From positions 1 to 28,161 of IMG/VR virus record IMGVR_UViG_2579778529_000004: a stretch of 28,161 nt of DNA; one strand, 5' to 3'. Position numbers and translations under genes: made by a program. The notes beneath the pieces are model-generated. The model was not told where the DNA came from. It ran no database searches and saw only the letters and a program-made list of their open reading frames with translations. Numbering within the stretch: position 1 is the first letter of the stretch; every line of letters starts with the position of its first letter. The DNA is from a virus (lineage: Duplodnaviria; Heunggongvirae; Uroviricota; Caudoviricetes). Shown here one piece after another: positions 10,328 through 26,730 of the stretch.

Positions 10328-11053
10328 TTAAAGCGAGCGGATGCCCACGCTGACCAGATGTTCAGACAGATCCGGCTCCGGTTCACCACCATTGACCAGC
10401 ATCCGGCTCATTGCTGTAAACATCGCAACAGGGCCGTCGATTTTGGCTTCCGGCGTGGATTTATTCGGGAAGATGTTGTCGTTTTTGTCCGGTTTTACCG
10501 TAACGTTAGACATCATCCAGTTCATGACCGGATGATTGCTGTGATGGAAACGCCCGGCATAGACCAGTGATTCCGTTTCCTTCATGGCCTCTGACAGATT
10601 GCGAACCGTCTGCGGAACCTCCACCAGCGGTATCCCTTCTTCAGCCAGTGCCAGGCTGAACTGCATCGCGCTCCACGGGTCAAATCCCAGTTCCCTGAGG
10701 TTTTCACCACCAATCCATTCCAGTAAGTCACTTTTTATCTGAGCATGATCGATAACATCACCATCCGTCAGAATCAGCTTATCCATCTCCGCCCACTTCC
10801 GGTAAAGTTCTGCCTGCTGCCGCGAGCATCGTTCCAGCCGTCCTTCCGGAAGCCAGAATTTAAAATCGGCATGAACATGCCCGTTATCCGTTCGCCAGAG
10901 TTTTGCCGCCGCACAGATATCAATCTTATGAGCAAGGTCAACGCCGACCCACATGGGATACGTTTTCAGCTCATGTCGTGGGGCAATGTATTCGCACTTC
11001 TCCCACTTAATCATGTCCATCCAGGCAGACTCTGCTGTTACCCACACATTCAT
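10328..11053 (-). CDS. terL: Large terminase, C-terminal (nuclease domain) fragment of the gene interrupted by the insert
   Basis: 241 aa aligning with the C-terminal third of the insert's terminase (helper [14 protein letters not shown] vs insert TKRFNIWCQGATPW); reading frame is continuous with the N-terminal fragment at 25698-26730 once the insert is removed. Confidence 0.8.
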
Positions 11054-11056
11054 GTG

Positions 11057-11071
11057 TTTGGTAAGAATATT
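11057..11071. other. Attachment-site junction (insert/helper terminase C-fragment side)
   Basis: Plus TTTGGTAAGAATATT; 12/15 identity to 25702-25716 with TTGGTAA core identical; terminase homology begins exactly here. Confidence 0.5.
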
Positions 11072-11139
11072 TCAAGTTTTTTAAAATCACCTGTATATCA
11101 ATCGTTTAACATGAAAAAACAGTCTTTATAAATCATCAA

Positions 11140-11160
11140 GCAATACACAGCGCAATACAC
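11140..11160. repeat. 21-bp terminal repeat GCAATACACAG(C/T)GCAATACAC, candidate integrase arm-type site
   Basis: 20/21 identical to 25552-25572 in direct orientation; itself a tandem duplication of GCAATACAC; 76 bp inside the insert end. Confidence 0.55.
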
Positions 11161-11345
11161 GTATCTGTATTGTTTTAATGCTGATACACACCGTTTTTTG
11201 ATACAGTGATTCGACCTACCATCGCGAAGAATTTTTTATTTCTTGTGTGTAACAATCTGACGAGGTGAGCACTCAAAGAGATAAGAGGCAGTAGAAATTT
11301 CGATCCCCCCTGAATGCAATTTTTCGTATATATATACAAAACAGC

Positions 11346-23766: not shown

Positions 23767-24045
23767 TTACTTATTGGCGTTTTTGTATGGGCTGTTTACT
23801 TCCTTTACTCCTGGCGGATGCATAACCCACCAGAGCACATCAGAGAGCAACCAGGAAACAGACACTTTCCCTAAATGAGCACGAGCAGGAAATGCTCCCT
23901 CCTGTTCAAGTACCCAACGTCTGCTTCTTGAAAGCCCGGTACGATTGGCACACTCATGTTCGCGTATACGGCGATCATACGGTTCGCCATGCTCTTTCAG
24001 AATCTGAATGCGTTCTTCGGGTGTAGGATAAATAAATTTTTGCAT
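23767..24045 (-). CDS. AlpA-family HTH regulator / excisionase-like (copy 2)
   Basis: Start ATG 24045 with AGGTGA upstream; ...ECANRTGLSRSRRWVLEQEGAFPA...VSVSWLLSDVLWW matches the AlpA HTH pattern. Confidence 0.6.
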   Translation of the reverse strand: MQKFIYPTPEERIQILKEHGEPYDRRIREHECANRTGLSRSRRWVLEQEGAFPARAHLGKVSVSWLLSDVLWWVMHPPGVKEVNSPYKNANK

Positions 24046-24108
24046 AAAAATATCACCTATAAAAAAACCCGCCAAAAGACGGGTTGATTATATCTCATTT
24101 AATTTAGC

Positions 24109-24336
24109 TCAGGGTTTCCATTCACCCTTTACCCATTCCAGCACCTCAGATAAGCGCCAGACTTTTGTTTGTGGGCCAATACATATTTTTCGTGGAAATT
24201 TTCCTTCCTTTTCAAGTAACGATCTGTGTCTCCTGCCAAGAGCAGTTAACCATGCACATTCATCTTCCTTAATCATCCTGTCGATTGTTTTATCATTTTC
24301 AAGTTCTTCACGCGTAACTATTTGAATCATTACCAT
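24109..24336 (-). CDS. alpA: AlpA-family HTH regulator / excisionase-like (copy 1)
   Basis: ...ECAWLTALGRRHRSLLEKEGKFP...VWRLSEVLEWV matches AlpA; directly downstream of the integrase, overlapping its stop; start could be 24330, 24336 or 24342. Confidence 0.6.
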   Translation of the reverse strand: MVMIQIVTREELENDKTIDRMIKEDECAWLTALGRRHRSLLEKEGKFPRKICIGPQTKVWRLSEVLEWVKGEWKP

Positions 24337-25531
24337 CACCACTAATTAGCTTATTCAGGTAGTCGTACCACCAGTTCATAGCTTCTTTTTTTCTGTCCAT
24401 ATACTGGCTTCTGTTATAAACCCCGGCAACACCGCCTAATGTGTGCCCAAGCAACTGTTCAACCACATTATGTTCAAAACCATGATCACTTAGCTTTGTG
24501 GCAAACACTCTTCGCATATCATGCGCCGTCCATTTCTCCGAGTGTTTCATCCTTTTCCATGTCTTACCGATAGTTACGCTTGCCGTACACTGACGCATAT
24601 CAAACCCAATCACATTTTCTTTGTTACCTGTTATTTTTTTTAACGTAACTAACCAGTTAAACATGCCATCAGGAATCGGTCTGATTATTTCCCTGCCATT
24701 TTTGCTATGATCAGCGGGAACGCGCCATAATTTCTTATCAAAATCCCACTCTCCCCAGGAGGACAGTAATACTTCTGACAGTCGGCAACCAAAAACTACC
24801 AGGAAACGTAAAATAATTCGGTTTTCATATGATAATTCGTGATTGTCATAATCAGTATTAATACTTCGCCATAAATCTCTGATTTCATCATCTGTTAAAA
24901 CCCTGCTTCTTCGCGCAGACTTTTTTCCCACATCACAGACCTCAAGATCATCAATTTCATGACTAATCGCGTATTTTCTTACCCGACAAAATTTAAGCGC
25001 CTGTTTTGATATACGCAATAAAGCTCCGGCCTGTACAGGTGCTACTTTTTTTATTTTGTCAAAGCACTTGATCCACATAGATATTGAGCAATCACTAAGT
25101 GGTACATGACCAATCACCGGATAAATATGTTTACCAAAGCACTGCCTGATATGTTCTGCTCCCCTACGCTTATCCATTGCATAATTATCAAGCCAGTATT
25201 CAAGCGCCTCACGAACGGTAACAGGTTGCAAGGTGGCTTCCCGTTCAATTTTTATCTGAATCCGTGGATCTCTGCCCTCCGCAAGCCAGGTTCGACACTG
25301 ATCGCGCATCTCTCTCGCTGATTTGAGACTCAGATCAGGATATTTTCCAAGTGTCAGCCAGATGGGCGCGGTTCCCCTTCCCGCCAGTCTGTAAAAGAAA
25401 ACAAAACTAACACATCCGTATTTACTGACCCGTACCGAAAGCCCGTTACCATCAGCGATGGTTTCCTGCCTCTCACTCCTGCGCCCAAGCAGGGAACGAA
25501 GTTTTTTATCGCTCAGTTTGTTTAGCGCCAT
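24308..25531 (-). CDS. int: Tyrosine integrase, P4-like
   Basis: About 407 aa from ATG 25531 (MALNKLSDKKLRSLLG...) with an N-terminal arm-binding-type region and C-terminal catalytic domain; located at the insert end next to the att junction. Confidence 0.85.
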   Translation of the reverse strand: MALNKLSDKKLRSLLGRRSERQETIADGNGLSVRVSKYGCVSFVFFYRLAGRGTAPIWLTLGKYPDLSLKSAREMRDQCRTWLAEGRDPRIQIKIEREATLQPVTVREALEYWLDNYAMDKRRGAEHIRQCFGKHIYPVIGHVPLSDCSISMWIKCFDKIKKVAPVQAGALLRISKQALKFCRVRKYAISHEIDDLEVCDVGKKSARRSRVLTDDEIRDLWRSINTDYDNHELSYENRIILRFLVVFGCRLSEVLLSSWGEWDFDKKLWRVPADHSKNGREIIRPIPDGMFNWLVTLKKITGNKENVIGFDMRQCTASVTIGKTWKRMKHSEKWTAHDMRRVFATKLSDHGFEHNVVEQLLGHTLGGVAGVYNRSQYMDRKKEAMNWWYDYLNKLISGDGNDSNSYA

Positions 25532-25536
25532 GTGAT

Positions 25537-26730
25537 TTATAACCCGTTTTTGCAATACACAGTGCAATACACAAATGATGAAAACAGCCAGAACCTTCCA
25601 GAAAAAACAAAAACGACGAACAAGAAAAAATCTTTTTCTTTCATTTGGTTACTAAAAAAATCAGGACAGGCCGCACTGTTGTTACGGCGTGATGTTACGT
25701 TCTTGGTAAAAAAATTCACCCGCGCAGAGACCTGTTCTTTCGCTTTTTTCGCCAGGCGACGCAGATCATCCCAGCGTTTACAGATGCCCAGGCCGGGATT
25801 CGCTTTCTGCCAGACCGTTTCATCAAACGGATCATCTCCCTCATCGAGGGTGTAAATAATCGCAAAGTAGGAGTCGTCTTTTACCGCGCCCTCCACGTCG
25901 CTGTTATAGCCACGCAATACCTTGATGGCGTAATCACGCTGCTCGTAACAAATCCCTTCCTTGTTAAACCCTGCCGTGGTGATACCAAATAAAAGGGACT
26001 GCAGACGGGCACCGGTTGCCGTTTCCAGAACGTCCCACACGTCACGGGTTTTATGTGCATGCAGCTCATCAATAATGGCGCAGTGGATGTTCAGACCATC
26101 CAGGTTGTTTGCATCCGAAGAAAGCGGTTCAAATTTTGATGCGCTCTGCTCCTGGTAAATCGCCAGCTTGTTGAAATCAAACAACCGCCCGAGTGTCGAC
26201 CGGGCTTTTCTGACCATATTTTTGGCGTCTTCAAACACGATTCTGGCCTGGTCACGCGTAGTTGCGGCTGAATACACCTCAGCACCGCCTTCACCATCTG
26301 CCCCCGTCATATACAGACCGATACCCGATGACAGGGTTGATTTTGCGTTTTTACGGGCGACTTCGTTGTACGCCGTCCGGAACCGGCGCACCATCACCGG
26401 ACGTCCGCTGCCATCGCTGCGCATGACAACTTCCCCGGTCTCTTCATTGACCAGCGGAATGACAAAACCAAAAATATTAATGAGGATAAATACATGCCAG
26501 TCCATCAACTCAATAGGCTGGCCTGCCAGCGCCCCTTTTACATGAGGCACAAATTTGTAGAAATTCAGGATGTGCTGCGCACGGGGTTCACTGAAATAAA
26601 TCCCCCGCTCTTCGCCGTACTTCAGATCATCAAGAAAACGCTGGCAGGCCAGACGGACAAATTCGCCAGCGACAATTTCTCCTGCAACAACACGTTCGGC
26701 GTAGCGGATCCCGTCAGCCACTTTTGCCAT
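25537..26730 (-). CDS. terL: Large terminase, N-terminal (ATPase) fragment of the interrupted gene, with a 51-codon insert-derived read-through tail
   Basis: The first ~346 aa align with the insert's terminase N-terminal two-thirds (FVPHVKGA, ARKNAKST, DQARIVFEDA, IIDELH motifs); homology stops at 25698 and the frame reads into insert DNA until a stop at 25537. Confidence 0.8.
   Translation of the reverse strand: MAKVADGIRYAERVVAGEIVAGEFVRLACQRFLDDLKYGEERGIYFSEPRAQHILNFYKFVPHVKGALAGQPIELMDWHVFILINIFGFVIPLVNEETGEVVMRSDGSGRPVMVRRFRTAYNEVARKNAKSTLSSGIGLYMTGADGEGGAEVYSAATTRDQARIVFEDAKNMVRKARSTLGRLFDFNKLAIYQEQSASKFEPLSSDANNLDGLNIHCAIIDELHAHKTRDVWDVLETATGARLQSLLFGITTAGFNKEGICYEQRDYAIKVLRGYNSDVEGAVKDDSYFAIIYTLDEGDDPFDETVWQKANPGLGICKRWDDLRRLAKKAKEQVSARVNFFTKNVTSRRNNSAACPDFFSNQMKEKDFFLFVVFVFSGRFWLFSSFVYCTVYCKNGL
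25552..25572. repeat. 21-bp terminal repeat GCAATACACAGTGCAATACAC, candidate integrase arm-type site
   Basis: 20/21 identical to 11140-11160, same orientation; just upstream of the integrase start. Confidence 0.55.
25702..25716. other. Attachment-site junction (helper terminase N-fragment/insert side)
   Basis: Plus CTTGGTAAAAAAATT; terminase-like translation ends at ...ARVNFFTK here and continues as 51 codons of non-terminase sequence. Confidence 0.5.

Follow-up and report, generated by a model that had tools for sequence, protein, structure and literature searches.

We analyzed a 28,161-nt stretch of a Caudoviricetes record (IMG/VR IMGVR_UViG_2579778529_000004, hereafter the window), in which the gene for the terminase large subunit (TerL) of a prophage, termed the helper, is divided by a satellite element with an integrase of its own. 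Nearly all real genes of the window lie on the minus strand. Read along this strand, the order is helper HNH endonuclease, terminase small subunit (TerS), the 5' part of terL, approximately 14.6 kb of other genes, the 3' part of terL, and then the portal, protease, capsid, connector and tail genes. The 5' part of helper terL (25710-26730, minus strand) encodes the TerL_ATPase domain and the first ~65 profile positions of TerL_nuclease, and its last codons (...FFTK) fall within the attL core. The 3' part (10328-11057, minus strand) encodes the rest of the nuclease domain and continues in frame past the core. Pfam searches assigned TerL_ATPase (8.5e-28) and TerL_nuclease positions 2-65 to the open reading frame (ORF) at 25537-26730, and TerL_nuclease positions 64-283 (1.1e-36) to the ORF at 10328-11053, both on the minus strand. 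The two fragments thus abut inside one Pfam profile, as expected from a previous sequence-only reading of this DNA, which had described a helper terminase split into an ATPase-side and a nuclease-side part. That reading also named a shared TTGGTAA core, and we find this 7-bp direct repeat (TTACCAA on the minus strand) at 25703-25709 (attL) and at 11058-11064 (attR). Foreign DNA does separate the terL parts, although its size, previously put at 14.7 kb, is 14,645 bp when measured as the insert plus one core copy (11065-25709).

Joining the two parts in silico at the core, with one repeat copy and everything between the repeats deleted, yields a 1758-nt ORF of 585 codons. This ORF is 100% identical over all 1758 nt to the annotated, intact "terminase large subunit" gene of Escherichia coli ETEC1747, which bears out the in-frame rejoining that had been predicted. 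An undivided terL is common, occurring in 908 of the 5426 complete E. coli genomes searched. The junction between terL and the integrase gene was found in 36 of these genomes and the opposite junction in 34, and thus neither can be attributed to chance or to an assembly artefact. Among the 36 carriers of the terL-integrase junction are E. coli 042 and strains isolated from pigs, poultry, cattle and humans, and identity across the junction is 97-100%. Residues on the satellite side of attL (NVTSRRNN...) are unrelated to TerL. The satellite encodes another TerL that shares only 31% amino acid identity with the helper type, and at the position homologous to attB the satellite terL DNA reads ...CTCACCAAGCGA..., compared to ...TTTACCAAACAC... 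in the helper gene. Precise excision is predicted to generate a circle with the attP junction ...ATATTCTTACCAAGAACG... and a restored terL reading ...TTTTTTACCAAACACATG....

The attL of strains 2014C-3075, GF31, OkiPb01701 and 06-00048 (loci L007-L010, at positions ~395-405) has TTCACGAAG in place of the TTTACCAAG of the window, owing to synonymous alleles of helper terL. In these strains, therefore, either the identity block is shorter than 7 bp or the crossover occurred to its right.

The insert encodes a tyrosine integrase of 407 amino acids (24308-25531, minus strand, from the ATG at 25531), identified by Pfam matches to Phage_integrase (4.7e-19) and Arm-DNA-bind_3 (1.1e-17) and by the RefSeq annotation of E. 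coli EC416. The gene was found in 36 of the 5426 complete genomes, the same number as carry the terL-integrase junction, and its region is 98.6% identical at the nucleotide level to the counterpart in E. coli 042. It is followed by two AlpA-family genes (24109-24342 and 23767-24075, minus strand; Phage_AlpA, 1.9e-09 and 7.2e-10), presumed to encode an excisionase and an activator. The integrase had already been recognized from the sequence, as had an intact terminase within the insert, here a TerL of 553 amino acids with both domains (11581-13242, minus strand).

This TerL gene belongs to a late module for capsid formation and packaging (11581-17603), placed like the other Pfam-based assignments in the satellite on the minus strand. 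The module encodes an HK97-type major capsid protein (16434-17603), a prohead protease (15819-16379), a portal protein (ORF 14603-16036), a head-tail connector (ORF 14311-14697), an HNH endonuclease (13871-14311) and a P27-type TerS (ORF 13226-13723). The connector scored 20.0 bits, borderline relative to the gathering cut-off of 21.2, and is annotated as a connector in RefSeq; all other proteins of the module have Pfam matches above the gathering cut-off. No tail or lysis genes occur among the ORFs of the insert or its RefSeq annotations. By gene content, the element is thus also a capsid-forming phage-inducible chromosomal island (cf-PICI), an identity overlooked in the sequence-only reading, which had not taken in the capsid, protease, portal, connector, HNH and TerS genes that accompany terL.

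Between the integration genes and the late module are two further zones, both also on the minus strand. One, the Bro zone, contains a Bro-N domain protein (23131-23709; Pfam Bro-N, 5.6e-20). The other is a replication zone (18117-22225; Pfam, and RefSeq annotation of EC416) that includes an Icd-like protein, small hypothetical proteins, a DUF4222 protein (21452-21766), a DUF927 primase/helicase (19332-21455), SSB (18696-19121) and a protein of the ProQ/FinO-domain RNA chaperone family (18117-18659). The ProQ/FinO gene adjoins that for SSB and is unusual cargo for a satellite. About 0.9 kb of the Bro/regulatory zone (22218-23131) has no convincing minus-strand gene, and a small YlcI/YnfO-family ORF at 22582-22800 is on the strand opposite to the other satellite genes. 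Scanned against Rfam at gathering thresholds, the entire window gave no match, including to the P4-like C4/isrK immunity RNAs sought in the Bro zone.

We then reconstructed attP from the window and measured the spacing of repeated motifs around it. A doubled TGTATTGC motif occurs on the integrase-proximal side (TGTATTGCACTGTGTATTGC; 25552-25571, minus strand), at +135 to +154 from the center of the attP core, and again on the terL-distal side (TGTATTGCGCTGTGTATTGC; 11140-11159, minus strand), at -98 to -79. Helper-embedded PICIs (HE-PICIs), reported at 14 prophage late-gene sites (Tommasini, Mageeney and Williams, NAR Genom Bioinform 2023; PMC10111431), have a diagnostic motif, tgTGTATTGCantgTGTATTGCa, with co-oriented copies 81 +/- 2 bp upstream and 132 +/- 2 bp downstream of the attP center (PMC10111431). 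The doubled motif of the window element sits at this published spacing. Another set of repeats, GCGGGTTAT iterons, is found in the AT-rich stretch between the stop codon of satellite terL and attR, as three direct copies (11346-11371) and three inverted copies (11445-11501) in groups approximately 90 bp apart. They may bind a regulator or act as an origin or packaging site. Scanning 10900-11700 for promoters and terminators, we detected no terminator-like site between satellite terL and the 3' part of helper terL, and the single promoter-like match was on the opposite strand and no better than chance.

At the other end of the insert, the terL frame does not close at the core. The terL-derived coding sequence ends at 25710, and the ORF remains open for 56 more codons past the core, through 37%-GC satellite DNA (25537-25702, minus strand), to a TAA at 25537-25539. 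The stop codon of the truncated terL ORF is therefore 5 nt ahead of the integrase ATG (25531). In E. coli 042 and APEC17 (loci L004 and L005), one additional T in a T-tract creates an in-frame TerL(N)::Int fusion ORF. The junction match is 802 nt instead of 801 nt long in 7 of the 36 genomes, a length that fits the fusion allele, which was confirmed directly in two. In the HE-PICI catalogue the fusion is flagged only as "reannotate term_int fusion" (PMC10111431). The supplement of the same study also prints the Arsenophonus A_246 attL, in which, read by eye, the frame closes after ~24 codons; the open run into the integrase gene is thus not universal in this site group. Expression of the integrase may be translationally coupled to helper late expression, or the arrangement may be a coincidence.

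The helper genes upstream of split terL, co-oriented with the satellite genes, encode an HNH endonuclease (27361-27747; Pfam HNH, 2.8e-16) and a P27-type TerS (26730-27212; Terminase_4, 4.5e-26). Downstream (631-10134) are the helper head and tail genes, including those for portal, protease, major capsid, connectors, tail proteins and the tape measure protein, all likewise on the minus strand. E. coli EC416, isolated from a pig in Japan, is near-identical to the window, and its composite prophage adjoins potB. In the EC416 composite, the RefSeq annotation shows Q, RusA, tRNAs and lysis genes on the upstream side and tail genes of lambda type (J, Lom) on the downstream side. The host prophage is lambdoid, with an HK97-type head. 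The EC416 satellite differs from that of the window in being interrupted by IS1414, an IS256-like insertion sequence of ~1.3 kb located between the Bro-N gene and the YlcI/YnfO gene (35886-37197 of locus L001). IS1414 is not present in the window, where the matching position is ~22953-22963 and the aligned flanks share an 11-bp overlap.

Relatives of the satellite were found at other chromosomal locations. Its late module is ~83% identical at the nucleotide level, over 78% of the query, to that of an element located between roxA and phoQ in E. coli O157:H7, and the genes are arranged in the same order. An additional gene, annotated "head closure protein", separates portal from connector in the O157:H7 element (12981-13319 of locus L003); this gene is missing from the window satellite (compare 14311-14697) and from an element of E. 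coli SMS-3-5. The SMS-3-5 element (locus L002; NC_010498.1, 955827-970072) is chromosomal, between rcnR and thiM, and its capsid and packaging module is 97% identical at the nucleotide level to that of the window. Its integrase and primase differ from those of the window satellite, suggesting that the integration module is swapped among otherwise similar cf-PICIs. The SMS-3-5 genome also has an intact helper-type terL. Searching a phage collection with the whole satellite returned only ~76% nucleotide matches to capsid and portal genes, and neither the composite nor the satellite is deposited there as a phage. One match of this kind to the satellite capsid/portal region (~76%) comes from the 16.5-kb "Escherichia phage vB_KppS-Ant" (LR881103.1), an induced prophage. 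Its size suggests that it is a cf-PICI-like element deposited as a phage.

Taken as a whole, the locus is very probably explained by an HE-PICI that is at the same time a cf-PICI, integrated at an attB in helper terL, whose excision would restore the gene and whose presence would until then delay helper packaging. Evident at the sequence level are a site-specific insertion at a 7-bp core, the exact in-frame restoration of terL that excision would bring, co-orientation with the late operon, and intact genes for recombination, replication, capsid formation and packaging. The tyrosine integrase would have recombined attP with a TTACCAA-centered attB in the nuclease-domain coding part of terL, leaving the satellite co-oriented with the late operon. 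By analogy with published relatives, SOS induction would lead to excision and replication of the prophage-satellite composite, and Q-dependent helper late transcription would then proceed through HNH, terS and the 5' part of terL into the integrase and alpA genes. The integrase, with AlpA, is predicted to recombine attL with attR to produce the 14,645-bp circle and an exact terL, the only step for which the outcome is established here at the level of sequence. As in those relatives, the satellite would next replicate with the DUF927 primase and SSB, form small capsids of its own and package itself with its own HNH, TerS and TerL, taking only tails from the helper. Before excision there would be no intact helper terL, and helper packaging would be delayed or reduced. 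Gating of helper packaging by satellite excision is plausible and corresponds to the "regulated gene integrity" proposed for HE-PICIs (PMC10111431). In the HE-PICI model 11capE of NRG857c, mitomycin C causes the composite to excise and replicate, and the satellite excises precisely about 1 h later (PMC10111431).

Several points weigh against this reading. Extrapolation from 11capE, a different satellite in a different target gene, and from the chromosomal cf-PICI prototype EcCIEDL933 (Alqurainy et al., 2022 preprint, 10.1101/2022.09.08.507074) underlies the proposed induction, excision and particle formation, and the host prophage is presumed to be the actual inducer and tail donor. EcCIEDL933 was reported to be harmless to its helper (Alqurainy et al., 2022); interference is thus no general cf-PICI property. 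No virions were recovered even from the 11capE composite, and many HE-PICI helpers look truncated (PMC10111431). The prophage around the satellite may itself be defective, with the tail-fibre and tail-fibre-assembly genes annotated as pseudogenes in the near-identical EC416 locus. The last three observations, together with IS1414 in the EC416 satellite, also favor the main rival explanation, in which site-specific integration is real and the composite is now a decaying, non-inducible remnant, split terL being a dead gene rather than a switch. We regard such a stranded relic as possible and on balance unlikely, because both halves of terL retain full (100%) identity to an intact allele, the window has intact versions of the core, arm motifs, integrase, alpA and scanned satellite late genes, and 36 genomes, of pig, poultry, cattle and human origin, carry copies of the junction that are 97-100% identical.

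According to another explanation, satellite TerL stands in for the broken helper TerL, so that helper packaging is not gated by excision. This "backup copy" idea was raised in the HE-PICI study (PMC10111431), and both terminases do belong to the same Pfam families and to packaging systems with HNH and a P27-type TerS. Substitution is nonetheless quite improbable given that the two TerL proteins are only 31% identical and that packaging by EcCIEDL933 and by phage was described as independent and mutually exclusive (Alqurainy et al., 2022). The tandem arrangement of two paralogous modules for head formation and packaging, both on one strand, could also be taken for a chimera, formed by homologous recombination between two HK97-like prophages, or for an assembly artefact, with no satellite insertion at all. 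However, TerL identity of 31% indicates more divergence between the modules than homologous recombination would tolerate, a 7-bp direct repeat beside an integrase gene with paired arm motifs marks the boundaries, exact uninterrupted alleles exist, and identical junctions are present in 36 independently finished genomes. Chimera and artefact, which have next to no probability, were rejected on the basis of the intact alleles, the shared junctions, and the core repeat with its arm motifs.

If the preferred explanation, a terL-sited HE-PICI that is also a cf-PICI, is correct, a viral parasite is parked in the packaging gene of a virus; the virus cannot package until the parasite leaves, and the parasite itself comes equipped with machinery for capsid formation and packaging. 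The helper would make tails and procapsids and yet be unable to package, serving as a dedicated tail donor until the satellite departs. This role would follow from the HE-PICI in terL being a complete cf-PICI, and would amount to cis-acting interference by a class of satellites reported as commensal. We offer only tentatively, as a rather doubtful proposition, the combined view that a terL-sited cf-PICI both makes its helper a dedicated tail donor and has translation of its integrase coupled to helper late expression. Neither part is spelled out in the HE-PICI or cf-PICI papers. More generally, the arrangement illustrates that other mobile elements can be targets of integrases and that the integrity of a gene can serve for timing.

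Sequence comparison identifies the window element as a catalogued HE-PICI rather than a mere look-alike, with all HE-PICI features that can be examined in sequence present. Supplementary File 1 of the HE-PICI study lists the site group A_Terminase_1_246 (A:Terminase_1:246) with the att identity "ttaccaa", and gene profile 27 is represented by seven E. coli entries, each exactly 14,645 bp in length (PMC10111431). One of these, Eco1645.15.A_Terminase_1_246, has the helper Eco1645.57.potB (PMC10111431). The E. coli 042 element, Eco33.15.A_Terminase_1_246, is catalogued at FN554766.1/2250958-2235714 (PMC10111431), coordinates that match our junction and integrase hits in the 042 record NC_017626.1. 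The window element shares with this group the target gene, the ttaccaa block, the 14,645-bp length and the spacing of the doubled motif, and the EC416 composite shares the potB location of the catalogued helper. Pfam matches place the zones in the HE-PICI order of Integration (Int, AlpA), Bro, Replication (primase, SSB) and Late. The integrase, alpA and primase genes are on the minus strand, like the interrupted terL and the helper HNH, terS, portal and tail genes, and the att sites map precisely, share a short block of identity and have an uninterrupted counterpart, attB, in related genomes. Integrase subclades track sites in the HE-PICI clade (PMC10111431), which fits the equal counts of 36 genomes for the integrase and for the terL junction. 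These counts and the 98.6% nucleotide identity to the integrase gene of the catalogued 042 element indicate that the window integrase belongs to this clade. We see no substantive difference between the window element and the A:Terminase_1:246 group. Integration into terL is therefore not the novelty implied by the sequence-only reading, since the site, its core and the exact element length were catalogued in 2023, and the arrangement as a whole, including this element at the terL site, was known from the literature of 2022-2023. The window adds a clean further example and a few small leads, the possible coupling of integrase translation to the terL fragment and the overlap between HE-PICIs and cf-PICIs, and does not represent a new kind of system.

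The overlap can be seen by comparison with the two models. 11capE, located in capsid gene E, has no terS and presumably relies on the capsids and cos machinery of its helper, whereas the window element has a full capsid and packaging module. The term cf-PICI is not used in the HE-PICI study, where large late zones are treated as "captured late genes" (PMC10111431). Experiments with EcCIEDL933 and helper HK106 showed that this cf-PICI makes its own small capsids, packages no DNA but its own and depends on the helper for tails alone, and helper tail mutants abolish its transfer (Alqurainy et al., 2022). The window element resembles this class in its int-alpA-primase backbone, in its size of 14,645 bp (~10-15 kb for the class and ~15 kb for EcCIEDL933), and in having major capsid, protease, portal, connector, HNH, TerS and TerL genes without tail or lysis genes; it is without the head-closure gene annotated in the O157:H7 element. 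Synteny and ~83% nucleotide identity suggest small capsids, self-packaging and tail-only dependence, and the window satellite should need only tails from its helper. EcCIEDL933 and its listed relatives, on the other hand, occupy attB sites in the chromosome and reportedly impose no cost on the helper, whereas the window element is inside helper terL, a site that must at least delay the helper. The cf-PICI criterion of an attachment site "never occupied by prophages" did not foresee a site within a prophage, as is the case here, where 36 genomes have the terL junction with a PICI-type integrase and 36 have the integrase. With an HE-PICI of the terL group possessing the full gene set that defines cf-PICIs, blocking helper packaging while sparing tails would suit the satellite.

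A further parallel is found in regulated gene integrity, or active lysogeny, in cellular genes, exemplified by phage phi10403S in Listeria comK and the skin element in Bacillus sigK. As in those systems, a mobile element splits a gene without supplying a replacement segment, and precise excision restores the frame. Here, in contrast, the gene that is interrupted is part of another mobile element, the prophage, and it is presumably the satellite, not the cell, that benefits.

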